Origin: a virus | Reading direction: 5' to 3' (one strand) | Length of the DNA stretch: 64,000 nt | IMG/VR virus record: IMGVR_UViG_3300019124_000038 | Coordinates: 64,001-128,000 of that record | Notes under the pieces: model-generated | What the model saw: the letters and a program-made list of their open reading frames with translations, nothing else | Database searches by the model: none | What the model was told of the DNA's origin: nothing | Part shown: piece after piece, positions 20,247 to 38,591 of the stretch | How positions within the stretch are numbered: the stretch's first letter is position 1 | How the letters are laid out: every line of letters begins with the position of its first letter | Translations under genes and position numbers: made by a program

Positions 20247-20945
20247 GTGGCATTCATCTATATGAGCAACGGGGAGCCAGTAGAGATTGATGATGAGGAT
20301 TTCGCTTGGCTTAGTCAGTACAAATGGAGACCAGACAAAGATGGATATGCGCGAACGACTTGGAGGCAAGATGGGACACGGTATGACAGACGAATGCACC
20401 GCATGATTTTAGATGCTTCTAGGGGTCAAATTGTAGATCATATCGACGGGAATCGCCTTAATAATCGCAAAAACAATCTTCGTTTTGTGAGTAGCCGACA
20501 AAACTCACAAAACATGAAGAGACCGCGCACAAACACTACAGGCTATAAGGGTGTAGTGAAGCGCAGAGAAAATAGGTATGAAGCGAAAGTCACTCACGGC
20601 GGAGATTGTTTGTACTGCGGAACATACACGAATGCTCTTGCCGCCGCACATGCCTATAATTACAACGCTAAGTTATGCTTCGGTCAGTTCGCACAGCTCA
20701 ACGAGGTCGAACCTTTGGATGATTGGAGAGACTTTCGGGTTGCGACTGTTCCGAAATCACAATGGCGTGGAGTGAGTGAAAAAGGCGATAAGTGGCAAGC
20801 ATCTATTTTTCATGAAGGTCAAAGAGTCTATATTGGTCTATATGAGACAGAGATTCAGGCGGCTTTAGCCTATAACGCTAAGGCATCTGAGTTAAAAGGA
20901 GAAAGTGCTGTATTGAACGAAGTGGAGGATGATCTAGTATGCTAG
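20247..20945 (+). CDS. HNH homing endonuclease with two AP2 domains
   Basis: MHR.I...VDHIDGNRLNNRKNNLR; two (Y/W)xGV...AA.AYN..A AP2 repeats. Confidence 0.9.
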   Translation: MAFIYMSNGEPVEIDDEDFAWLSQYKWRPDKDGYARTTWRQDGTRYDRRMHRMILDASRGQIVDHIDGNRLNNRKNNLRFVSSRQNSQNMKRPRTNTTGYKGVVKRRENRYEAKVTHGGDCLYCGTYTNALAAAHAYNYNAKLCFGQFAQLNEVEPLDDWRDFRVATVPKSQWRGVSEKGDKWQASIFHEGQRVYIGLYETEIQAALAYNAKASELKGESAVLNEVEDDLVC

Positions 20946-21805
20946 GAATTGCATTCGCAGGAGGTGGAATCAGAGGAAGTGTCGAACTCGGCATCGTAAA
21001 GGCTTTCTACGAAGCGAACATTCGCCCAACAATCTTTACTGGTGCATCCGCTGGTTCAATTGTGGCAGGGCTACTAGCGATGGGCTACAGTCCTGACGAA
21101 GCATTCGCTGAGTTTTCAAAAGTTGGTAGTGATGTAATGGATGTAGCGTATGGTCATATCCTGTCTGGTCTCTTCTCGAAAGAACGAGTGCAAGGACTAG
21201 TTAGGGGTGACAGATTAGAGTCTATGTTGAACATGCTCTATTGCCGACGACAAATGCATGGGATTCCACAACCTAATAAGTTGGCAGTTGTTGCGACAGA
21301 CATCCAGACAGGCAAACAGATCATTTTTGCGAATCAAGACCCAGTAGACACAAGCATGATTGGTGATGATAATTTCGCATGGTTTAATCAGAGCACTTTG
21401 CCAATCAGTTTTGCTGTTCGCAGTTCATGCTCTTTCCCCGCCGTCTTCTTACCGAAGAGGTACATGGATTATGTATTAGTGGACGGGGGACTCACCAACA
21501 ATGTCCCATCGGATATTGCGCGGGCACTGGGAGCAACACAGGTCATTACTATTGATCTTGGCTACAACGGGGAGAAAGAGGAAGTAGGTGGTATCGCTTC
21601 AATCATCGGGAAAAGCATTTCAATTCTCATGGAGCGCGTAAACGATCATAATAACGATACACATGGAATCTATCTGAATCCTAGCGTGGATGATGTTGGA
21701 ACATTTGATTTCTCGCAAATGGACGAACTCTACCAGATCGGCTATAGATACGGGAAAGCAATGATCCAAGAAGTTCGTGAGAAGCTAGTCCTTGCCACAG
21801 CCTAG
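20939..21805 (+). CDS. patatin-like phospholipase
   Basis: GGGIRG, GASAG nucleophile elbow, DGG. Confidence 0.92.
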   Translation: MLGIAFAGGGIRGSVELGIVKAFYEANIRPTIFTGASAGSIVAGLLAMGYSPDEAFAEFSKVGSDVMDVAYGHILSGLFSKERVQGLVRGDRLESMLNMLYCRRQMHGIPQPNKLAVVATDIQTGKQIIFANQDPVDTSMIGDDNFAWFNQSTLPISFAVRSSCSFPAVFLPKRYMDYVLVDGGLTNNVPSDIARALGATQVITIDLGYNGEKEEVGGIASIIGKSISILMERVNDHNNDTHGIYLNPSVDDVGTFDFSQMDELYQIGYRYGKAMIQEVREKLVLATA

Positions 21806-21821
21806 CAATCTATGTTATACT
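21792..21821 (+). promoter_or_regulatory. sigma-A type promoter of the rSAM operon
   Basis: TTGCCA-N18-TATACT with TG extension, followed by the conserved ATAAGATAA leader and GAGGAGG RBS. Confidence 0.7.
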
Positions 21822-21851
21822 ACACCTATAAGATAAGAGGAGGAACACCGC

Positions 21852-22187
21852 ATGGTAACAATCGCAAATGGCGTTGTTTTCAATGACACCCATGTCGTAA
21901 CAACAACTGAGCTTTTACGGCTCTCCTTCTATGGGACAGGCAATGAGAATGTCATCATTGCCTTTGCTCCTAGTGTTGAGCGTCGTGGCTTGAAAGTTCT
22001 AAATGATTTCAAGCAAAACGGTACAGCAAAGATTCAAGTGTACAACAACGGTGTGCTTATCTTTGAAGATAGTGCCTATACAGATGTACAGTTCGAATAT
22101 GCCAAGAACGACACGCAAAATCTGGTAGAGCAACTGAACTTCACCAAGTCTGTTTCTTCGCTATCGACATCTACGGTCAGCGGGTAG
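21852..22187 (+). CDS. hypothetical beta-rich protein, first gene of rSAM operon
   Basis: GAGGAGG RBS, 111 aa; no family recognised. Confidence 0.75.
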   Translation: MVTIANGVVFNDTHVVTTTELLRLSFYGTGNENVIIAFAPSVERRGLKVLNDFKQNGTAKIQVYNNGVLIFEDSAYTDVQFEYAKNDTQNLVEQLNFTKSVSSLSTSTVSG

Positions 22188-22196
22188 GTGTTATAG

Positions 22197-22853
22197 ATGC
22201 CAGCACAGAAAGGTACAGTTTGGATTACCGATTCTGAGTTTCATCTGGTAGGTGAGGACGGACTGCATTGGTACTATGTCGGCACTGATGCGGGTGCGGC
22301 TCCAGCGGATGCAGACCTTGGCTCTATTTGGGTTAACACCAATCTGTATTACATCGACGCTAACGCTAGGATTCGGTATATCCCAAGCGTAGTCATGAGC
22401 GCTGTGCAGGGTGTTGCTGGTAGTGCATGGATTAATAACCGTTTCCTCTACTGGCTAGATAACACAAAGACCATCCGATACGGTCATTCAGATGTCGCAG
22501 GATACAACGACTACGGCGATTCACGCGCTCACGGAGACACGGCATTCTATGACAGGGCACATACCGATTCCTATGGCACATATACAAACTGGGCGCATAG
22601 CGACACTCCTCACTCTGACAACGCACACGGTGACTGGCAACCATACTGCGACGTAACTGGTTGCTCGCCTACGCACGGTGATTATGGACATGGCGATAGT
22701 CCACATAGTGATAATCCGCATGTAGATTCACCAGCGCAATATTTCGATATTCCACACGGGGATACGCCACATAGCGACACCCCACCATACTCGGATTACG
22801 GCGATTCTCGGGCACATGCAGACTACCCACGACAGGGAACGACAATTGCATAG
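22197..22853 (+). CDS. fibre-like protein with HxD/YxD repeat region; putative radical SAM substrate
   Basis: Three N-terminal G(S/T)xW repeats; 21 aromatic-x-D/N motifs in aa 97-209; directly upstream of an rSAM/SPASM gene. Confidence 0.8.
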   Translation: MPAQKGTVWITDSEFHLVGEDGLHWYYVGTDAGAAPADADLGSIWVNTNLYYIDANARIRYIPSVVMSAVQGVAGSAWINNRFLYWLDNTKTIRYGHSDVAGYNDYGDSRAHGDTAFYDRAHTDSYGTYTNWAHSDTPHSDNAHGDWQPYCDVTGCSPTHGDYGHGDSPHSDNPHVDSPAQYFDIPHGDTPHSDTPPYSDYGDSRAHADYPRQGTTIA

Positions 22854-22864
22854 GAGGGGAAAGG

Positions 22865-24079
22865 ATGGCTAACGAAGTTAGACCTATGGGTGTAGCATGT
22901 AATCTTAAATGCACTTACTGCTATCAGAACCCTCTTCGGGATGCGGGGAATATCAATACTCTGTATGATCTCGAAAAGATCATCGAGCAACTTGACAAGA
23001 CCACATCAGAGTTTCACCTTTTCGGGGGTGAAGCTCTACTAATCCCGAAGAAAGATTTAGAGGTTCTTTGGTCATACGGATTAAAACGGTTCGGACAAAA
23101 CGGGATTCAAACGAACGGCGTACTTATCGACGCTGAACACGTAGAACTGTTCAAAAAATATAAAGTTTCTGTCGGCATCTCTATCGACGGCCCTGCCGAA
23201 CTCAACGACATGCGTTGGGCGGGTTCTCTCGACAAGACACGGGAAGCAACGCAAAAGATCATGGACAACATCGTTATGCTGGCTAATGAGGGTGTGCAGA
23301 TGGGCATTATCATCACCATCCACAAACTTAATGGTATGCCAGAACATCTTCCACGACTGCTCAATTTTATTCGTTGGCTCGGAGATATCGGCGTTAAAGG
23401 CGGCAACATTCACACCCTTGAAGTCGATAATGAGATTGTAAGGAACATGTTCTGTCTGACAGAAGAAGAAAATCTTTATGCGTTCCTGACTCTGGCGCAG
23501 TTCTTTCAGGAGAACCCTGATCTGTCATGGAATCCGTTCGGAGAAATATACAAGCTCCTCCAAGGTGATGACTACGGGGCTAACTGTAATTTTAAACGAT
23601 GTGATTCTATGAACACTCAGGCGGTCTATGGCATTGAAGGGAATGGCGCACTGTCTAACTGCTCTCGCACTAACAAAGAAGGTATCGACATGTATAAGGC
23701 AGACGATCATGGCTATGAGCGCTACATTTCGCTCTACCACACGCCGCCTGAGTATGGTGGCTGTAACGGTTGCCGTTTCTGGTCGATCTGCGGTGGATCA
23801 TGTCCCGGTGAAAGTGTTAATGGAGACTTTAGAAACAAAACAATACACTGTCAAACAATGAAGGGTATTCTCGGTTTCTACGAAGAAGTTCTGGAGAGCG
23901 AGGGTATTCAACCTATCACTAAGCATCCGAATCTCTACGAATACGAGAGAGAGATGTTGAAGTGGATGGCGCAAGGTCAGAACTGCTTGCTCAGTGATGC
24001 TATCAGGATGGTTGATGGTCGCGGGGAAAATGGCGAAATTCGCGTAGTTCCTGTGTACAGAAATGAAGGGAGGGAGTAA
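22865..24079 (+). CDS. radical SAM/SPASM domain peptide/protein maturase
   Basis: CNLKCTYC, FGGEALL, IQTNG, ISIDGP; SPASM CNFKRC...SNC...CNGCRFWSICGGSCP...HC. Confidence 0.93.
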   Translation: MANEVRPMGVACNLKCTYCYQNPLRDAGNINTLYDLEKIIEQLDKTTSEFHLFGGEALLIPKKDLEVLWSYGLKRFGQNGIQTNGVLIDAEHVELFKKYKVSVGISIDGPAELNDMRWAGSLDKTREATQKIMDNIVMLANEGVQMGIIITIHKLNGMPEHLPRLLNFIRWLGDIGVKGGNIHTLEVDNEIVRNMFCLTEEENLYAFLTLAQFFQENPDLSWNPFGEIYKLLQGDDYGANCNFKRCDSMNTQAVYGIEGNGALSNCSRTNKEGIDMYKADDHGYERYISLYHTPPEYGGCNGCRFWSICGGSCPGESVNGDFRNKTIHCQTMKGILGFYEEVLESEGIQPITKHPNLYEYEREMLKWMAQGQNCLLSDAIRMVDGRGENGEIRVVPVYRNEGRE

Positions 24080-25041
24080 TGATGGAACTGCTTGGCTTTG
24101 ACATGCCGCCGTTTGCGCGTATTCAATATGTTACAGCAGGTGTCAAGAACGAGTGGGAGCCGCGTGTTGCAAGAGCCGCAAAAGCCTACTACGATCTGGA
24201 GCTTCTAACTGTCAAGCATGGAGTACGCGCATGTACTACACGTCATGTCTCTCCACAGAACTTGGAGTATGACTTACAGAACTTTGCGCGGCATGGTCTT
24301 GTGTGGCTTCCGATTCAACGAGTGGGAAGCTATCAGGGCTTTGCTCACAAGCATCCTCCTGTTCAGGAAGGTCGCCCTTGGGCTTGGTATGGTGTAGTGG
24401 CTCGTACAATGGAAGACGCTTTGAAGTTTGTCGAAGCATCGACGACAAAGTTCGACCACGATGTTCTTGGTCAGCTTCTTGGCTATCCCGACTGTTGTCG
24501 AAAGTTTTTTAATGAGGTGTGGGGGGCAGGGTATATTGACCCAATATGGCAACAAGCAGGAGGTGATCTTGAACACATGATACAGCATGAGGTCACGGAA
24601 GGTCAGGAAATGGTGCACTTCTCCAGTAGCGTCTCACATTTGACCGTATCCATGCTTCGTTATATTGGTGTGCGTATCGTACCGCATATCCCGTGCTCTG
24701 TAGGTTGCAAACATTCAGAGCATATTGCTCAGGCATGGTTTGAAGTCGGAGAGAAAGAGGAGGTAGAAGGTCTCCGTGATCTTGTAGCCCTCTTGACTCT
24801 GCCTACTGAATGGGACTGCCTGAGAGGGATTGCCGTTGTCTCTACACCTTTGTTCAAGATTCAGACGAACTCTATGACCACAACGAAGCGGTACATTGTT
24901 CGTAAGGATGGCGAATGGTATCCAGAAGAAGCACCAAGCGGCTTGAAGTTTCCTTGGCAAACGAAAGTAGGATTCGGATGTAATACCAGTATTCGCTCAC
25001 ACGCCAAGTCTGATCTGATTCAAGTAGAGAGTACACAATGA
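24079..25041 (+). CDS. Cys/His-motif protein coupled to the rSAM gene (possibly DUF483-like)
   Basis: Start overlaps the rSAM stop; motifs GQLLGYPDCCRKFF and HIPCSVGC. Confidence 0.7.
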   Translation: MMELLGFDMPPFARIQYVTAGVKNEWEPRVARAAKAYYDLELLTVKHGVRACTTRHVSPQNLEYDLQNFARHGLVWLPIQRVGSYQGFAHKHPPVQEGRPWAWYGVVARTMEDALKFVEASTTKFDHDVLGQLLGYPDCCRKFFNEVWGAGYIDPIWQQAGGDLEHMIQHEVTEGQEMVHFSSSVSHLTVSMLRYIGVRIVPHIPCSVGCKHSEHIAQAWFEVGEKEEVEGLRDLVALLTLPTEWDCLRGIAVVSTPLFKIQTNSMTTTKRYIVRKDGEWYPEEAPSGLKFPWQTKVGFGCNTSIRSHAKSDLIQVESTQ

Positions 25042-25429
25042 AACTTCTCCGCATATTGTTAGTGCCAATCACGTACCCGATTTTCGTGGTTCTCGTTATT
25101 CTCGCGAATTTACTTATAGTAGTAACATTTGGAGATGTTCGTTGGGCATGGATATTCGCAGGATGGGTACAGGATTACTACTATTGGATAAGTGAATGGA
25201 GGTATATGTAGTGGCTAAGGACACCAATATTGACACTCAAAAGTTTGACTGTTGCTACGAACTGAGCCACAAGGGGATTTACATGGAGGTTGACCTGAAT
25301 AGTACCCATGTGGCCTTCTCAATGTATAATCGTGCGCGGTTTGAAACACAAGTTTGTATCAATAGCAAGGACGACGCACGTAGGCTCATTGAGTTGTTAG
25401 AGGAATATTGTCAGCGATCCTAGCATTCC

Positions 25430-25458
25430 TTGACAAATCTGTCACTAAAGTCTATAAT
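25430..25458 (+). promoter_or_regulatory. sigma-A type promoter
   Basis: TTGACA-N17-TATAAT. Confidence 0.9.
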
Positions 25459-28771: not shown

Positions 28772-29977
28772 ATGGCAAAGATCGTAATGCTATCCGATAG
28801 TCCCACGCTGACTACTGGGTATGGTCGCGTCATGCAAGTTTTAGCTCCTGCGTTTCATGAGCTAGGACATGCTGTGACAGTGATCGGATGGGGATATACG
28901 GGAGAGCCCCATGACTTCCCGTTTCCCATCATTCCGTGCAATGCACATGCCGACCGATTCGGCGAAGATATCCTTGGTGAATTCATTCGCTATGAAAAAC
29001 CAGATATCCTCTTCACACTTGGAGACCCTTGGATGACTGAGTTTATTCCAGAAATGGAGGAGCGCGTAGCTGTCCATTGGGTAAGTTACTTTCCACTAGA
29101 CGGATACCCTATCCCGAAGTCATGGCATGGATGGTTGCTAAATATTGATACTCCTATTGTGTTTAGCAAGTTTGCTCAGAACTTGGCAGAGGAGGTTCTT
29201 GGTCGTAAACCGCCGCTGATCTACCACGGCGTTGACACAAACAAGTTCCAAGTTCTTGATCGGAGCACATGCAAGCAGGAAATTCTCGGATTCGATGACA
29301 AGTTCATCGTAGGCACGGTGGCGCGGAATCAACCGAGAAAGAATCTACCTGCGCTTGTAAGAGCATTTGCGGATTTTGCAAGGGGTAAGGACGATGTGGC
29401 TCTTTATATGCACACACAGATTCGTGACGTAGGATGGAACATCGACGAGCTAGTAGAACGGTTCGAGCTATATGACAAAGCCTACTGCACAGATAACTTT
29501 AATGCTCTCAAAGGTGTTCCCGACAGTGAGTTAAACAAACTATACTCGATGTTTGACCTCTTCGCTCTCCCTACGATGAGCGAGGGTTTTGGGCTACCTA
29601 TTTTGGAAGCACAGGCTTGTGGCACACCTGTTCTTGTAACAGACTTCTCAGCATGTCCAGAACTTGTGGTCAACCGCAACCAGCTCATTAAGGTCAAAGA
29701 TACGATCATTATGGGGCGGAACATAGAGCAAGCTATTGTCGATCACGACGATATGGTTCGCAAACTCAACTACTACTACGCCGATTGGAAGAAAACACGC
29801 GCTGGAATCATGGGAGCCAATAGCGTTTTGAAGGCATATGGGGTTGCTGGTCGTAGACTGGCAGAGAGCTTTGACTGGTCGATTCAGTTGAAAGAGTTTA
29901 ACAAGATGCTGAGACAGATTACTCCACAAGCTGAAAGGCGTTCAAAGGCTATCTTTCCTCAGTTCCATAAAATTTAG
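28772..29977 (+). CDS. glycosyltransferase family 4
   Basis: TGYGRV, IYHGVD, ARNQPRKNLP, EGFGLPILEAQACGTP. Confidence 0.93.
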   Translation: MAKIVMLSDSPTLTTGYGRVMQVLAPAFHELGHAVTVIGWGYTGEPHDFPFPIIPCNAHADRFGEDILGEFIRYEKPDILFTLGDPWMTEFIPEMEERVAVHWVSYFPLDGYPIPKSWHGWLLNIDTPIVFSKFAQNLAEEVLGRKPPLIYHGVDTNKFQVLDRSTCKQEILGFDDKFIVGTVARNQPRKNLPALVRAFADFARGKDDVALYMHTQIRDVGWNIDELVERFELYDKAYCTDNFNALKGVPDSELNKLYSMFDLFALPTMSEGFGLPILEAQACGTPVLVTDFSACPELVVNRNQLIKVKDTIIMGRNIEQAIVDHDDMVRKLNYYYADWKKTRAGIMGANSVLKAYGVAGRRLAESFDWSIQLKEFNKMLRQITPQAERRSKAIFPQFHKI

Positions 29978-30212
29978 AAGCGGGGTTGTTTGAAACTCTT
30001 TTACGGATCGTAGAATTGTACTATGGAGGTGTGGATGATGATTGAAGTAAAGAAAAATGAGCACCCTATTCCTCACATCAACATCAAGTTATCTGAACAG
30101 CAAGCGTCTTCGCTGGAATATGCACTGAGCCTAGTCAGGCTAAATGGGGCACTTGAAGGTGAGGTACAGGACTTCCTATACGCACTTCAAAAAGCTATTG
30201 GGGGTATTCTTG

Positions 30213-31367
30213 ATGAGTAATTACCAAGTGGTATGGCGGGGCATTGTGCACGATTCAACAGGGTACTCTCGGGCATCTCGGGAGTATCTTTTGTCTCTTG
30301 ACAGGGCAGGAGTTGATGTAAAAGTAGAGCCGATGAACTTTGGTTCACCGCCGACCGAACTGTCCACTGAACAAGCAAACCGCATTAGCGAATTAATCCA
30401 AAAGCCGTATGCAACAGACAAAAAAAAGGTACTGATTTACCATGCTCAACCAAGCGGGATTAATGTTGAAGCAGAACGATCTCAGTATGATTACGTCATC
30501 ATTAATACCGTATGGGAGACAACAAGAATTCCTGCTAGTTGGTTCCCTGGCGCAAATCTTTGTGACGCAATTATCGTGCCTTCTGAGCAGAACGTTCAAG
30601 CGCTACGGGATAGCGGTGTGACCGCTCCGATCTACAAGGTTCCGCACGGAGCAGACTTTGAGAGATTTAATCCAAACAACGCTCCATTTCATTTGCCGCA
30701 ACTCGAAGATCGTTTCGCATTTCTTTCAATCTTCCAGTGGCAACACAGAAAGGCTCCAGATATGCTTTTGAAAGCGTTCTGGTCTGAGTTCACAGCAGAA
30801 GAGAAAGTGATTCTTGTAATGAAAACGTACTGGGGTCATGCGCGGCATAGCGGTCGAGTGATTCGCAGTCGAATTTTCGATTATAAGGAACAACTCGGCT
30901 TCACTAATACTGCTCCGCTTTATTTAACAACAAGCCCGTTCAGCGACGATCAATTGAAAGGTCTATACACAATGGCTGATGTTTTTGTATTGCCGTCGAG
31001 GGGTGAGGGTGTGGGGCTTCCATATATCGAAGCACTATGTTCTGGTATTCCTGTAATTGCAACTGGGTGGGGTGGGCAAACTGACTTCTTGACAGATCAG
31101 AACTCTCTTCTTATTAACTACACATTGGAGAGTACACGATATCATCAGCATACCCTTGCCCCTGATTTTCATGACCTCTTCACGGCAGACATGCAATGGG
31201 CAGAGCCGAACATAGACAGCCTACGAAAAGCAATGCGCTGGTTCTATGAGCATAGATTCACCGCTCCGAAGGTATTTGGGCGACTCGGGCGGGAAGATAT
31301 GATGGAAATGTCATGGGACAATGCAGGACAAAGGTTTAAACAAACCATCGAGGAGGTGATTTCGTGA
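30213..31367 (+). CDS. glycosyltransferase family 4
   Basis: TGYSRA, TVWET, HRKAPD, PSRGEGVGLPYIEAL. Confidence 0.93.
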   Translation: MSNYQVVWRGIVHDSTGYSRASREYLLSLDRAGVDVKVEPMNFGSPPTELSTEQANRISELIQKPYATDKKKVLIYHAQPSGINVEAERSQYDYVIINTVWETTRIPASWFPGANLCDAIIVPSEQNVQALRDSGVTAPIYKVPHGADFERFNPNNAPFHLPQLEDRFAFLSIFQWQHRKAPDMLLKAFWSEFTAEEKVILVMKTYWGHARHSGRVIRSRIFDYKEQLGFTNTAPLYLTTSPFSDDQLKGLYTMADVFVLPSRGEGVGLPYIEALCSGIPVIATGWGGQTDFLTDQNSLLINYTLESTRYHQHTLAPDFHDLFTADMQWAEPNIDSLRKAMRWFYEHRFTAPKVFGRLGREDMMEMSWDNAGQRFKQTIEEVIS

Positions 31368-36108: not shown

Positions 36109-37054
36109 CCATTTTCTTGATGAGTATGCCGCTACAGAACGTTTGATTCGTGAATGGGAGAAATACGGTAGGCTGGTGATCGCGTATGACTTCGACAACA
36201 CAGTTTACGACTATCACGGCGGCGGCTACTCTTACTCGATGGTAATTGATCTCCTCCGTAAGTGCAAGGAAGTTGGAGCTTACTTCATATGCTTCACGGC
36301 GCGGGAAAATGACGAGCTAGACTTTGTGTGGAAGTATCTGAAAGACAACAATATTCCTGTGGACAAGCTCAATGATAATCCTGACTTCCTACCCTTTAAC
36401 GGTCGAAAAATCTACTACAATATCCTCTTGGATGATCGGGCTGGACTCGCTCAGGCATACAACATGCTGAGTTACGCCGCGACACACATGAAGGCAAAAA
36501 GGAGCGTGAAGCGATTGGGTGAAGAATGGCGACCAATAGAAGGGTACGAAGGTCTATACGAAGTATCCAATCTTGGTCGTGTAAAATCACTTGCAAGAAC
36601 AATAATTCGTAGTGATGGTCGTAGGTGCGTGGTAACAGAGAAAATCTTGACCGAGCGTGTCAACGACAGAGGATACATAGAGATCAAGCTGTCAAGGTTA
36701 GGGTCTAGCACCTACAAGAAACTACACAGAATCGTGGCTACGGCATTCTTGGACAATCCCGAAAACAAGCCCGAGGTCAATCACAAAGATGGCAACAAGA
36801 AGAACAACCAAGCTGAGAACCTTGAATGGGCTACGCACTCCGAGAATATGCAACACGCTTTCGCAAATGGACTACATTCCCACCAAGGAGATCGGAGTTC
36901 GACCAAGTTACTAACCGAGTCAGATGTTCTGTCAATACGGGAGCGTCAGGCGAACGGTGAAAAGCGCGGCGAAGTGTATGCCGACTACGCTGAAGTGATT
37001 TCCATTCATGGTTTTAAAGCAATCTGGTATCGCCATACTTGGAAGCATATCTGA
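36101..37054 (+). CDS. HAD-like domain fused in frame to a NUMOD4-HNH endonuclease
   Basis: AYDFDNT...KIYYNILLDDRAG then EEWRPIEGYEGLYEVSNLGRVKS and HR.VA..F...VNHKDGNK.NN...NLEW. Confidence 0.85.
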   Translation: MLDHFLDEYAATERLIREWEKYGRLVIAYDFDNTVYDYHGGGYSYSMVIDLLRKCKEVGAYFICFTARENDELDFVWKYLKDNNIPVDKLNDNPDFLPFNGRKIYYNILLDDRAGLAQAYNMLSYAATHMKAKRSVKRLGEEWRPIEGYEGLYEVSNLGRVKSLARTIIRSDGRRCVVTEKILTERVNDRGYIEIKLSRLGSSTYKKLHRIVATAFLDNPENKPEVNHKDGNKKNNQAENLEWATHSENMQHAFANGLHSHQGDRSSTKLLTESDVLSIRERQANGEKRGEVYADYAEVISIHGFKAIWYRHTWKHI

Positions 37055-37067
37055 GGAGGTAATGAAC

Positions 37068-38591
37068 ATGGGTAAATTCGTAACTCCCGCTTCATTGTTG
37101 TGCGATTTTTATAAGGTAAACCACCGTCAGCAATATCCGAAAGGCACTACTCGTGTGTACTCGAACTGGACAGGGCGGCTTTCCCGCATTGAAGGCGTAG
37201 ACAAGGTAGTGATGTTCGGTCTGCAAGCCTTCATCAAGGAATACCTGATCGACTACTTCAATGAACACTTCTTCGCTCGTCCGCACATTGAAGTAGTATA
37301 TGAGTATTATCGTTACATGCGGTTCACTTTAGGTATTGAGAATCCCGATGCTTCCCATATTGCCGCCTTGCATGACCTCGGCTATCTGCCGCTCCGTATT
37401 GAGGCGGTGAAAGAAGGTACGCTCGTACCGATCAAGGTTCCGATGCTTACTATCGAGAATACTCATGACGACTTCTTTTGGCTGACGAATTACGTTGAAA
37501 CCCTGCTGTCGTCTGAAATCTGGCAACCGATGACCATTGCGACCATTGCCCTGCAATATCGCAAACTGTTGGAAGACTATGCGGAGCAAACTGGTGCGGA
37601 TAAGTCTGCTGTTATCTTTCAAGGTCACGACTTCTCCATGCGCGGCATGGGCGGTCTGAAAGTGGCGGAACACGCAAATGCAGGTCACTTGCTCTCCTTT
37701 GTGGGAACCGATACTGTTCCTGCTATCGCCCATATGGAATCGTATTACAATGCTAACATTGAGACCGAGATGGTTGGCACTTCCATTCCTGCTACTGAGC
37801 ATTCTGTTATGTGCGCTGGCGGGCGGGAGAACGAAGGGGAGACCATTCGCCGCCTGATCGAAGATGTATACCCGAAAGGCTTTGTGTCTATTGTCTCTGA
37901 CACTTGGGACTTGTGGAATGCAATCGACGTTCACTATCGTGGTCTTAAAGATAAAATCATGTCCCGTGACGGTCGAGTAGTTATTCGTCCTGATTCTGGC
38001 GACCCCGTGAAGATTCTGGTAGGCGACCCCGAAGCTACCGACTATCGTGCACGTAAAGGTGTCATTGAACTCCTGTGGGATATCTTCGGCGGCACGGTCA
38101 CTGAGAAGGGCTACAAGCAACTTGACTCGCATATCGGCGTAATCTACGGAGATGCGATCAGCCTTGACCGTGCAAAGCGTATCCTCGAAGGTCTGAAATT
38201 TAAGGGGTTCGCATCTACCAACATCGTGTTTGGCATCGGTTCCTTTACCTACCAGTATCAAACTCGTGATACCTTCGGTTTTGCCCTGAAAGCTACTTAT
38301 GTAAAGATTGATGGCGAAGAACATTTCATCATGAAAAACCCAATCACCGACTCTGGCTTCAAGAAATCGGCAACTGGCAAGCTGGCGGTCTGCAAGTCTC
38401 ACTTTAATCCGCATAATGGTCGTATAACTTCAAAGCCTGAGATCATTCTGATTGACAGCCTAACAGAAGAAGAGCTTATGAATATCAACTACAACGATCA
38501 CAATATGCTCGAAGATGTGTTCGTGGACGGCAAGCTGGTGCGCGATCAGTCCCTCGCAGAAATCCGCGCTTTGCTGGAGTCGCAACTATAA
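37068..38591 (+). CDS. nicotinamide phosphoribosyltransferase homolog (NARP1 Namat-like)
   Basis: DFYK..H..QYP, HDFSMRG, IPATEHSVM, SIVSDTWD, RPDSGDP, IYGDAI, TRDTFGFA.K. Confidence 0.93.
   Translation: MGKFVTPASLLCDFYKVNHRQQYPKGTTRVYSNWTGRLSRIEGVDKVVMFGLQAFIKEYLIDYFNEHFFARPHIEVVYEYYRYMRFTLGIENPDASHIAALHDLGYLPLRIEAVKEGTLVPIKVPMLTIENTHDDFFWLTNYVETLLSSEIWQPMTIATIALQYRKLLEDYAEQTGADKSAVIFQGHDFSMRGMGGLKVAEHANAGHLLSFVGTDTVPAIAHMESYYNANIETEMVGTSIPATEHSVMCAGGRENEGETIRRLIEDVYPKGFVSIVSDTWDLWNAIDVHYRGLKDKIMSRDGRVVIRPDSGDPVKILVGDPEATDYRARKGVIELLWDIFGGTVTEKGYKQLDSHIGVIYGDAISLDRAKRILEGLKFKGFASTNIVFGIGSFTYQYQTRDTFGFALKATYVKIDGEEHFIMKNPITDSGFKKSATGKLAVCKSHFNPHNGRITSKPEIILIDSLTEEELMNINYNDHNMLEDVFVDGKLVRDQSLAEIRALLESQL

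Follow-up and report, generated by a model that had tools for sequence, protein, structure and literature searches.

The window, the whole stretch of 64,000 nucleotides of viral DNA analysed here, carries on its + strand a compact set of genes headed by a sigma-70-type promoter-like site at 21792..21821 (TTGCCA-18-TATACT, with an upstream TG in the 18-nt spacer). The four ORFs that follow encode a 111-aa protein without a match in Pfam, PHROG or NCBIfam (21852..22187), a 218-aa protein composed of an N-terminal domain and a repeat array, which we call the carrier (22197-22853), a radical SAM/SPASM enzyme of 404 aa (22865..24079), and a DUF483-like partner of 320 aa (24079..25041). The first two intergenic gaps measure 9 and 11 nt, and the third junction is a 1-nt TAATG overlap, through which the partner is translationally coupled to the enzyme. 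The original prediction had described one promoter and four tightly packed genes, and all of these features are present where it placed them. The single-promoter unit may nevertheless be larger than the four genes proposed: two small overlapping + strand ORFs, of 57 aa (hydrophobic; 25038-25211) and 75 aa (25196-25423), lie between the partner gene and the next strong promoter match past the operon (12/12; 25430-25458), and no + strand terminator was found between the two promoters. Because these ORFs precede the next promoter, six genes may be transcribed together, with both ORFs on the same transcript as the carrier, enzyme and partner genes. The two ORFs are not conserved, and a related, syntenic phage contig of 178 kb (L078) has a different 58-aa gene there. 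Genes for a patatin-like phospholipase and an HNH endonuclease flank the operon upstream, and ERF and RusA genes flank it downstream; as predicted, no protease or transporter gene adjoins it.

The sole homologue found for the 111-aa protein is the product of a 102-aa gene at the same position in L078 (36% identity), and none was detected in any of the other loci or in a search of 5.8 billion proteins. Judged by sequence comparison, this first gene is lineage-specific and stands outside the conserved module, and the conserved unit is the trio of carrier, radical SAM/SPASM enzyme and DUF483-like protein. Hundreds of viruses that infect bacteria or archaea carry the trio, as do some cellular genomes. 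Its description as phage-borne applies to most of its occurrences, although no phage genes were seen around the examined loci of Pseudomonadota and Bacteroidota, which a Bacillus cereus locus appears to resemble in its surroundings.

The enzyme matches Pfam Radical_SAM (1.1e-16) and phrog_1802 (2e-34). It has C12/C16/C19, the auxiliary-cluster Cys 241, 246, 266, 300, 303, 309, 313 and 329, and also G261; each of the 11 cluster cysteines is kept in 31-32 of 32 orthologues. With CxxxCxxC beginning at residue 12, the enzyme has no room for an N-terminal RRE, in agreement with the original prediction; the motif occupies the same position as in anSME, AmcB, YhhB, XyeB, GrrM and FxsB, whereas RRE-bearing maturases align 70-120 residues further in. 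Profile placement puts the enzyme in no curated family, whether triceptide, HxsB/C or anSME. Its best NCBIfam matches score about 37-76 bits against cut-offs of 310-450, with anSME and cyclophane synthases about equally low, so that the enzyme constitutes a clade separate from the triceptide synthases and the type of bond it forms is a guess on these scores.

The best NCBIfam and PDB sequence match is anSME (TIGR03942; PDB 4K36-4K39; closest solved sequence 4k36/4k37, E 1e-10), which shares the leaderless architecture, and as in anSME, eight conserved Cys suffice for two fully Cys-ligated auxiliary clusters. It is known that anSME works on a folded-protein substrate via C-beta hydrogen abstraction. 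However, at 76 bits the match stays well under the cut-off of 349, the alignment covers only the N-terminal 150 residues, and neither a sulfatase gene nor a C/S-x-P-x-R motif lies nearby, the linked protein being the HxD array. A second comparison is the His-Xaa-Ser system, in which HxsA, a His-x-small repeat protein, is paired with the radical SAM maturases HxsB and HxsC. The concept of a repeat protein with radical SAM/SPASM enzymes is the same, but here position 3 of the motif is Asp or Asn instead of Ser, one enzyme plus the DUF483-like protein is found instead of HxsB, HxsC and HxsD, and HxsB and HxsC are absent from the best 25 of 64 NCBIfam matches.

As anticipated, homologues of the enzyme co-occur with omega-x-D repeats, across phyla and in bacterial and archaeal viruses alike. 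At 32 of 36 orthologue loci, but at none of 49 control loci with distant radical SAM enzymes, the enzyme gene has a dense H-x-[D/N] array no more than 5 kb away (Fisher p≈2e-19). Three orthologue loci (L023, L032, L033) have sparse motifs only, and at the Geitlerinema locus THDQxLx heptads replace HxD. The association also appears from the other two genes: in searches started from the carrier, a radical SAM gene and one of 318-407 aa lie downstream of each of four carrier homologues, and in searches started from the DUF483-like protein, five family representatives all have an adjoining or fused radical SAM enzyme; an HxD or HxN carrier is present in all four DUF483-family representatives with DNA at hand. 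Furthermore, 13 of 32 enzymes carry a C-terminal HxD tail of their own (2-9 motifs). There is good support for an enzymatic modification of the repeat array, and we infer that the array is the substrate. It has been considered instead that the enzyme pair acts on DNA or nucleotides, which would make the repeat protein an unrelated neighbour; homologues adjoin deazapurine DNA-modification genes in cyanobacteria (bioRxiv 10.1101/2024.08.14.607894), the Geitlerinema homologue is followed at about 3 kb by a DpdD gene, and the window operon itself sits among DNA-metabolism genes. We give this reading very little credence, since nearly all loci link the enzyme to H-x-[DN] arrays, the linkage holds in both directions and the controls lack it, HxD tails are fused onto the enzyme itself, and a SPASM architecture typically marks a maturase of peptides or proteins. 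In Geitlerinema, moreover, no DNA enzymes are encoded directly upstream of the enzyme; the genes there specify a protein of 2144 aa and a His-repeat protein of 271 aa.

The DUF483-like partner scores 20.5 bits with Pfam DUF483, below the cut-off of 25, which one homologue exceeds with 30.2 bits. It shares 44% identity with its phiLo/Cumys counterpart, has a conserved Cys cluster (C139, C140, C206 and the invariant C210), and is modelled by AlphaFold2 with a pLDDT of 89. No strong structural match to its fold was found, the best being 2guk (Z 6.0) and NleE (Z 4.3), both in the range of unrelated folds. The family is large, with at least 1147 cluster representatives matching its profile at E<=1e-30. 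For 28 of the 29 radical SAM orthologues screened, the partner is either encoded next to the enzyme or fused with it, and the contig of the sole miss (L005) ends just upstream of the radical SAM gene. Enzyme-DUF483 fusions occur in L028 and L032, and a SAM methyltransferase domain accompanies the DUF483-like protein in many systems; the 914-aa protein P0022, in which a Radical_SAM domain precedes a stretch that matches the DUF483-like/methyltransferase profile, looks like a fusion of all three.

The N-terminal domain of the carrier (aa 1-96; 22197..22484) contains three G-S-x-W...L-x-Y-x-D beta repeats and is predicted to be all-beta (AlphaFold2 pLDDT about 90), with W9, W45, W78, Y52 and G29 conserved among homologues; it weakly resembles the beta-prism II lectins (LlpA 3m7h, Z 4.0, rmsd 4.6, 92 aligned residues). 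The array, the proposed substrate region (aa 97-209; 22485..22823), is built of HxD together with YxD, FxD and YxN. Our recount agrees with the earlier figures of 13 HxD and 21 [HYFW]-x-[DN] motifs, all of them within residues 96-218 and far more numerous than in 5000 shuffles of this segment (HxD mean 2.1, maximum 9; aromatic-x-D/N mean 5.5, maximum 13). Across arrays, position 1 is His in about 89% of motifs and Tyr, Phe or Trp in about 11%, position 2 is a small residue, and position 3 is Asp (92%) or Asn (8%), with nothing else tolerated. HxD is a classic metal-binding pair, so that the array could serve a purpose for which no modification is needed; the restriction of position 3 to the isosteres Asp and Asn fits C-beta chemistry better than pure carboxylate-metal binding.

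The spacing of the motifs in the window array is mirrored around residue 152, with 20 of 22 motifs pairing, a result not reached in any of 2000 spacing shuffles. Mirror spacing is also significant in Cumys, in both L017 proteins and in L026, L029, L030, L034, P0007, P0008, P0010 and P0012, and not significant in the carriers L008, L009, L010, L018 and L022. Such symmetry implies an array that folds back on itself, most likely a long antiparallel hairpin with a Gly/Pro-rich turn, as far as the spacing indicates.

The gene neighbourhoods of other viruses suggest where the carrier acts. In Cumys and phiMa the order is baseplate, tail collar fibre, carrier, radical SAM enzyme, DUF483, and in the haloarchaeal provirus L034 it is Baseplate_J, baseplate protein, tail fibre, carrier, radical SAM enzyme, DUF483; the carrier is therefore in the tail-fibre slot of the Thermus phages and of this provirus, and in L079 a tail-fibre gene lies upstream of it. 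By analogy, the carrier would be a fibre-like protein located in the virion. In this phage and L078, the operon has genes of nucleotide metabolism on one side and of recombination on the other, and the large structural ORFs are roughly 34 kb or more away.

This context, together with the up-and-down chain path implied by the mirror spacing, also recalls the needle of T4 gp37, a phage fibre in which a short His motif is repeated along such a chain; gp37 binds seven iron ions via HxH, and similar motifs are reported for other phage fibres (PMC11705849). The array could accordingly be a metal-lined oligomeric fibre needle, for which the radical SAM and DUF483-like proteins would serve in assembly, metal loading or folding, or perform an unrelated modification. 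His and Asp amount to about 31% of the array, and AlphaFold2 leaves it unstructured as a metal-free monomer (pLDDT about 36). We consider this explanation unlikely: the carrier has HxD and lacks HxH, it shows no sequence or fold match to gp37, and Asn, a poorer metal ligand, replaces Asp through most of the array in the L087 clade. The aromatic residues that replace His fit a crosslink donor better than a metal ligand. Finally, gp37-type needles need chaperones, not a radical SAM enzyme. The two ideas are partly compatible, as crosslinked motifs could chelate metal.

A classical RiPP pathway, in which the carrier would be cut into small modified peptides and released, for example as metallophores or antimicrobials, has in its favour the separate repeat peptides (68-96 aa) encoded next to the enzyme in L028, L026, L086 and L090, and the multi-motif precursors typical of triceptide systems (PMC11499958). 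We judge it improbable because arrays often sit as C-terminal tails of 870-1500-aa proteins, the window carrier begins with a well-folded domain and not a leader, and viral carriers occupy tail-fibre positions. The window has neither a protease nor an exporter beside the module; in the other examined loci no protease was seen, and the only transporter genes within 5 kb were an MFS gene (L029) and, at the edge, an OEP gene (L085). The folded domain and the tail-fibre slots elsewhere make the reading of the original prediction, RiPP-type chemistry on a protein as opposed to a secreted peptide, a reasonable one, with the reservation that the window operon lies among replication genes.

The explanation that we favour, and hold to be probable, is a three-gene protein-maturation module that places triceptide-type crosslinks on a carrier displayed on a fibre. 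The leaderless enzyme, with one SAM cluster and two auxiliary [4Fe-4S] clusters, would act repeatedly on the omega-x-[D/N] motifs, most likely first abstracting the C-beta hydrogen of residue 3 and then coupling that residue through a C-C bond to residue 1, at its imidazole C2 or its aryl ring, to give a three-residue cyclophane many times over on one protein. The DUF483-like protein would be an obligatory partner, either a substrate-presenting subunit or a second tailoring enzyme. The specific His-C2 to Asp-Cβ bond is suggested by analogy with the triceptide synthases (HaaB, HtkB, XyeB, GrrM/OscB, FxsB, YhhB, AmcB, ChlB), which likewise combine radical SAM and SPASM domains without an N-terminal RRE, have cognate substrates with multiple aromatic-x-x motifs, and are among the best-scoring curated models, the ChlB structure being the third-best PDB sequence match. 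Crosslinks from His-C2 to C-beta on H-x-x motifs are established for HaaB (HAA) and HtkB (HTK) (PMC11499958). The present system differs from them in its scores (about 37-74 bits against cut-offs of 310-450), in the Asp or Asn at position 3, in a carrier that is no short leader-core peptide but a protein with 10-50 motifs and a length of up to 1500 aa, in its mirror-symmetric spacing and obligatory DUF483-like partner, and in being mostly viral without a linked protease or exporter.

The same three orthologues form the "rSAM module" of the Thermus phages Cumys and phiMa (radical SAM enzyme 47-51% identical, DUF483-like protein 44%, carrier BLASTP E 2e-22), for which the third gene was given as unknown, histidine repeats were unmentioned and DNA modification was suggested (bioRxiv 10.1101/2024.08.14.607894 = PMC11437467). 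To that description, our analysis adds the reading of the carrier as substrate, a definition of the motif, its mirror-symmetric spacing and a wide distribution. The recurring trio points to an enzyme system, so far uncharacterised, for the chemical modification and probably the cross-linking of a fibre-like virion protein. Its product would probably be a rigid needle, resistant to proteases and heat, that is displayed on a fibre or receptor-binding protein of the virion and may also chelate metal.

The four co-directional ORFs described in the original prediction were confirmed exactly, at 21852-25041: a 111-aa gene (21852-22187), the 218-aa repeat carrier (22197-22853), a radical SAM/SPASM enzyme (22865-24079) and a DUF483-like partner (24079-25041), with 9 nt and 11 nt between the first three and a TAATG stop/start overlap between the last two. 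A promoter-like site on the + strand (21792-21821) lies ahead of the operon, the next strong one, which matches the consensus, is found at 25430-25458, and no + strand terminator was found between them; therefore, two small overlapping ORFs located 3' of the DUF483-like gene (25038-25423), which encode a strongly hydrophobic 57-aa protein and a 75-aa protein without family matches, may be co-transcribed with the module formed by the carrier, the enzyme and the partner. At this position, the syntenic 178-kb phage contig L078 has a different, VbhA-like 58-aa gene. The 111-aa protein has no Pfam, PHROG or NCBIfam match; a role for it as adaptor or chaperone of the module is unsupported, the gene being common only to the closest relative and its ESM-Atlas matches lying below chance level.

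The parent record is a 146.5-kb IMG/VR virus, estimated to be 76% complete, with genes for DNA polymerase, ribonucleotide reductase, NAMPT, glycosyltransferases and the large terminase in the window, and no near-identical DNA was found among GenBank phages. The nicotinamide phosphoribosyltransferase (37008-38591; phrog_448, 1e-195) and the two tandem glycosyltransferases (28772-31367; phrog_2170) are auxiliary genes unconnected with the module. Directly upstream of the operon is a patatin-like phospholipase gene (20939-21805; PF01734, 3.5e-26); L078 and the contig that carries P0073 likewise have a patatin gene close to the module, which hints at a recurrent association.

The pairing of the enzyme with an aromatic-x-D repeat protein, first proposed from the window alone, was borne out in the neighborhoods of its homologues. 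The search of GenBank phage proteins returned enzymes with 47-51% identity in phiLo, Cumys, and phiMa, which are phages of Thermus. Directly 5' of the enzyme, Cumys and phiMa encode a 343-aa protein in which the N-terminal G-S-x-W...Y-x-D repeats of the carrier recur and which has 54 HxD motifs; the gene 3' of the enzyme shares 44% identity with the fourth gene of the operon. Pattern-seeded scans yielded 7 viral and 18 genomic full-length enzyme orthologues (34-52% identity), the latter from Bacillota, Gemmatimonadota, Acidobacteriota, Armatimonadota, Bacteroidota, Pseudomonadota, Planctomycetota, Leptospirales, Actinomycetota, and one haloarchaeon. For our analysis, an array was considered dense if a six-frame scan found a stretch with 5 or more H-x-[D/N] motifs per 60 residues, and the 49 distant radical-SAM loci returned by the same scans served as controls. 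A dense array was present at 32 of the 36 orthologue loci and at none of the 49 controls (Fisher p 2e-19); among the four loci without such an array, one is on a contig that ends just 5' of the enzyme. In 28 of the 29 orthologues screened, and in none of the controls, a DUF483-like gene lies beside the enzyme or is fused to it.

The linkage between enzyme, carrier, and partner is reciprocal. Four homologues found with the carrier as query all lie ahead of a radical SAM gene and a gene of 318-407 aa, and five representatives drawn from the DUF483-family profile search all have the enzyme adjacent or fused; for the four with available DNA, a repeat carrier was present every time, once as a 68-aa peptide missed by the gene caller. 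Two kinds of fusion provide independent support. First, 13 of the 32 aligned enzymes, among them L001 (phiLo), L002, L004, L007-L010, L018, L022, L080, L082, and L086, have a C-terminal HxD tail of their own, with 2-9 motifs such as HGDHWD or HGDHTD, which may represent self-modification, a pseudo-substrate, or docking to the carrier. Second, enzyme and DUF483-like protein are fused at loci L028 and L032. The 914-aa protein P0022 is an apparent rSAM-DUF483-methyltransferase fusion, since the part of it that follows the Radical_SAM domain matches the DUF483-like/methyltransferase profile.

The known substrates of radical SAM/SPASM maturases are small secreted peptides and sulfatases. The window enzyme belongs to the Radical SAM superfamily (PF04055, 61.9 bits against a cut-off of 29.5), and its CxxxCxxC motif lies at residues 12-19 (C12/C16/C19), as originally noted. 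The Pfam SPASM model gave no match at E<=0.01; nevertheless, the enzyme has the seven-Cys SPASM pattern (C-x9-15-G-x4-C ... C-x2-C-x5-C-x3-C ... C) as C246-x14-G261-x4-C266, C300-x2-C303-x5-C309-x3-C313 and C329, together with C241, and the alignments to the PapB, Clo7bot, CefB, and QhpD models extend through this region. The three cysteines of the SAM cluster and the eight of the auxiliary clusters are kept in 31-32 of the 32 orthologues, as is the SPASM Gly. The best curated models score far less than their cut-offs of 340-450 bits (anSME 76, DynA 76, AmcB 74, YhhB 68, PapB 68). Placement among the anaerobic sulfatase maturases does not hold, since TIGR03942 gives 76.4 bits against a cut-off of 349.45 and aligns to residues 5-156 only, and no sulfatase gene, which would be expected to bear the C/S-x-P-x-R motif, was found in the operon or its flanks. 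Nor is the enzyme a recognized triceptide synthase, the family of three-residue cyclophane-forming enzymes, as AmcB (74.4 bits; cut-off 425), YhhB (68.0; 445), XyeB (52.7; 450), GrrM/OscB (50.1; 310), and FxsB (37.4; 370) all fall below their cut-offs. HxsB and HxsC, the maturases of the His-Xaa-Ser system, are absent among the best 25 of 64 NCBIfam matches, all of these far under cut-off. Among solved sequences, anSME is nearest, together with a weak match to ChlB, a triceptide synthase. The CxxxCxxC occupies the same N-terminal place as in anSME and the three-residue cyclophane synthases, whereas in RRE-bearing maturases the cluster motif aligns 70-120 residues further in. The low scores and the position of the motif together indicate, at the level of sequence, a separate SPASM clade with a leaderless architecture. 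The family comprises at least 934 sequence clusters at E<=1e-40, all only generically named. One orthologue (L079:6682-8895) is 737 aa long and has about 330 additional residues at its N-terminus.

The partner family appears to be related to DUF483 (PF04467). The window protein by itself is sub-threshold (20.5 bits, E 4.9e-4, cut-off 25), the L006 orthologue passes with 30.2 bits, and 16-43% of the members of the partner's ESM-Atlas neighbor clusters carry PF04467. A cysteine cluster (C139/C140, C206, and the invariant C210) is kept, and at many loci the protein also has a C-terminal class-I SAM methyltransferase domain. The structure of the window partner is predicted with confidence (pLDDT 89). 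Foldseek found no match to this model at E<=0.001, and the best results of a wide VIA structure search, 2guk (Z 6.0) and NleE (Z 4.3), are within the range of unrelated folds, for which reason we make no methyltransferase claim for the DUF483 core; a PDB sequence search with the DUF483-like profile gave chance-level rows only. At E<=1e-30, the family profile matches at least 1147 representatives of 50%-identity clusters; judging by its ESM-Atlas neighbors, the family is largely viral. Its near-universal presence beside the enzyme and its fusions suggest that the DUF483-like protein is needed by the module in some way.

The analysis of the carrier confirmed the 13 HxD and 21 aromatic-x-D/N motifs reported for it, all within the C-terminal 123 residues and far above what is obtained with composition-preserving shuffles. 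Across 654 motifs from 25 carriers, position 1 is occupied by His (89%), Tyr (8%), Phe (2%), or Trp (1%), position 2 by a small residue, and position 3 by Asp (92%) or Asn (8%); the spacing has a mode of 5 residues and a range of 3-9. Carriers come in three forms: peptides of 68-96 aa, proteins of 200-340 aa such as that of the window, and C-terminal tails on proteins of 870-1500 aa. In the predicted structure, residues 1-99 of the window carrier form a confident all-beta domain with three repeats, and residues 100-208 are unstructured in the monomer. Pfam, PHROG, and NCBIfam gave no match to the carrier, and a PDB sequence search returned chance-level rows only; its model matched only the phiMa-type orthologue in BFVD, and its N-terminal domain showed only a weak resemblance to beta-prism lectins in the PDB. 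Pentapeptide repeats are defined by a regular A(D/N)LXX five-residue unit and a match to the Pfam Pentapeptide model; we rejected this reading of the array because there is no Pfam match and the spacing is irregular (3-9 residues).

Some carriers depart from this description. In the carrier of a cyanophage-like contig (L087:5970-6641), where the gene order is DUF483-like, carrier, and enzyme, the H-x-D repeats are replaced by H-x-N, Y-x-N, and F-x-N, with H-x-N almost throughout the array. The same contig has a heme oxygenase, a bilin reductase gene, and, upstream, a second pair of radical SAM and methyltransferase genes. At the locus of Bacillus cereus (L090:4697-10653), a culturable host, a 981-aa protein has 16 C-terminal HxD motifs with a period of about 8 (HxDxPxxx) and is followed by a 96-aa HxD peptide, the radical SAM gene, and, in the position of the DUF483-methyltransferase, a 490-aa gene with a weak Methyltransf_36 match, a layout in agreement with that of the Pseudomonadota loci L026 and L029.

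The locus of Geitlerinema sp. PCC 7407 bears on the published guess that the enzyme pair of the Thermus phages modifies DNA, since it is the locus used for that argument and a DpdD gene lies about 3 kb downstream of the enzyme homologue. The genes directly upstream of this enzyme, however, encode a 2144-aa protein and a 271-aa protein (L089:7140-7955) in which a THDQ(S/R)L(N/S) heptad is repeated about seven times and which has a poly-Pro tail. No HxD motifs were found in this repeat protein, and the locus is an atypical member of the system.

The surroundings of the module differ among genomes. In Cumys and phiMa, the carrier comes after the baseplate and tail-collar-fiber genes; in the haloarchaeal provirus L034, it is preceded by Baseplate_J, a baseplate protein, and a tail-fiber protein; and at L079 there is a tail-fiber gene upstream of it. 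In the window phage and L078, the operon is located between the patatin/RNR genes and ERF, at least about 34 kb from the large structural ORFs. At those loci of Pseudomonadota and Bacteroidota that we examined, no phage genes were found within about 5 kb of the module, and the locus of Bacillus cereus appears to resemble them.

The spacing of the motifs is mirror-symmetric. In the window carrier, 20 of 22 motifs have a mirror partner around residue 152, the positions of each pair adding up to 304, a value reached by 0 of 2000 spacing shuffles. The symmetry is also significant in Cumys, both L017 carriers, L026, L029, L030, and L034, and four homologues that were found independently show it too, all of them with a Gly/Pro-rich center; it is not significant in several other carriers. 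A palindrome of spacing at the protein level is impossible to obtain from DNA repeats and makes an antiparallel hairpin likely, with each motif beside its mirror partner. The center of the window carrier, YCDVTGC (residues 150-156; 22644-22665), contains two cysteines. This pair is not conserved, and the W that replaces the second Cys in the 60%-identical homologue P0007 indicates that a disulfide at the turn is not a feature of the family.

We consider repeated enzymatic modification of the array, in which the enzyme would act on the carrier many times over, to be the best-supported reading. The carrier, encoded next to the enzyme, has aromatic(1)-x-x(3) motifs as triceptide substrates do, 21 of them in the window protein, and three-residue cyclophanes joining His-C2 to C-beta on H-x-x motifs have been established for HaaB and HtkB (PMC11499958). 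By analogy, a bond of this type fits our data, as Tyr, Phe, or Trp can take the place of His and position 3 is limited to the isosteres Asp and Asn; other radical outcomes, such as cross-strand links, C-beta oxidation, or epimerization, are also conceivable. The carrier could instead be a classical RiPP precursor, but the module has neither a protease nor an exporter linked to it. The array could also be a metal-binding needle like that of T4 gp37, which is partly compatible with its being modified; gp37, however, coordinates iron along the trimer axis through HxH motifs, and the carrier has 0 HxH.

A more specific form of the modification reading, which we put forward tentatively and regard as rather improbable as a whole, is that in tailed viruses of bacteria and archaea the radical SAM/SPASM enzyme and its DUF483 partner covalently staple a His/Asp hairpin needle on a virion fiber through tens of His-Asp (or Tyr-Asp) C-C crosslinks, within motifs or across strands. 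A register sum of 306 would place each His opposite the Asp of its mirror partner. If true, it would be the first time that RiPP-type radical crosslinking is seen to mature a structural protein of a virus, and possibly a new covalently pre-organized, metal-chelating protein material.

In our searches on HxD repeats, DUF483, and radical SAM enzymes with tail fibers, the only publication found was the Thermus-phage paper, which noted the three-gene module once, gave its function as unknown, and guessed at DNA modification (bioRxiv 10.1101/2024.08.14.607894 = PMC11437467). To this our analysis adds the proposed repeat substrate, the definition of its motif, the mirror symmetry, the D/N variant, the fusions, and the wide distribution, and it redirects that guess. 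The system of enzyme, partner, and substrate is large, mostly viral, and uncharacterized: an enzyme clade of at least about 900 sequence clusters, with about 1100 for the DUF483-like family that accompanies it, is tied to arrays on protein-sized, fiber-like carriers, mostly in viruses. Tractable systems are available in Cumys and phiMa, with T. thermophilus HB8 as host, and in a locus of Bacillus cereus. If confirmed, our results would give a first function to DUF483-related proteins, provide a small set of three genes with which a protein scaffold could be crosslinked many times over, and widen the scope of cyclophane-type (or other radical) chemistry to include virion proteins and Asp/Asn as the third residue; they would also account for the presence of the module in thermophilic and halophilic viruses, where covalent stapling of the fiber would make sense.
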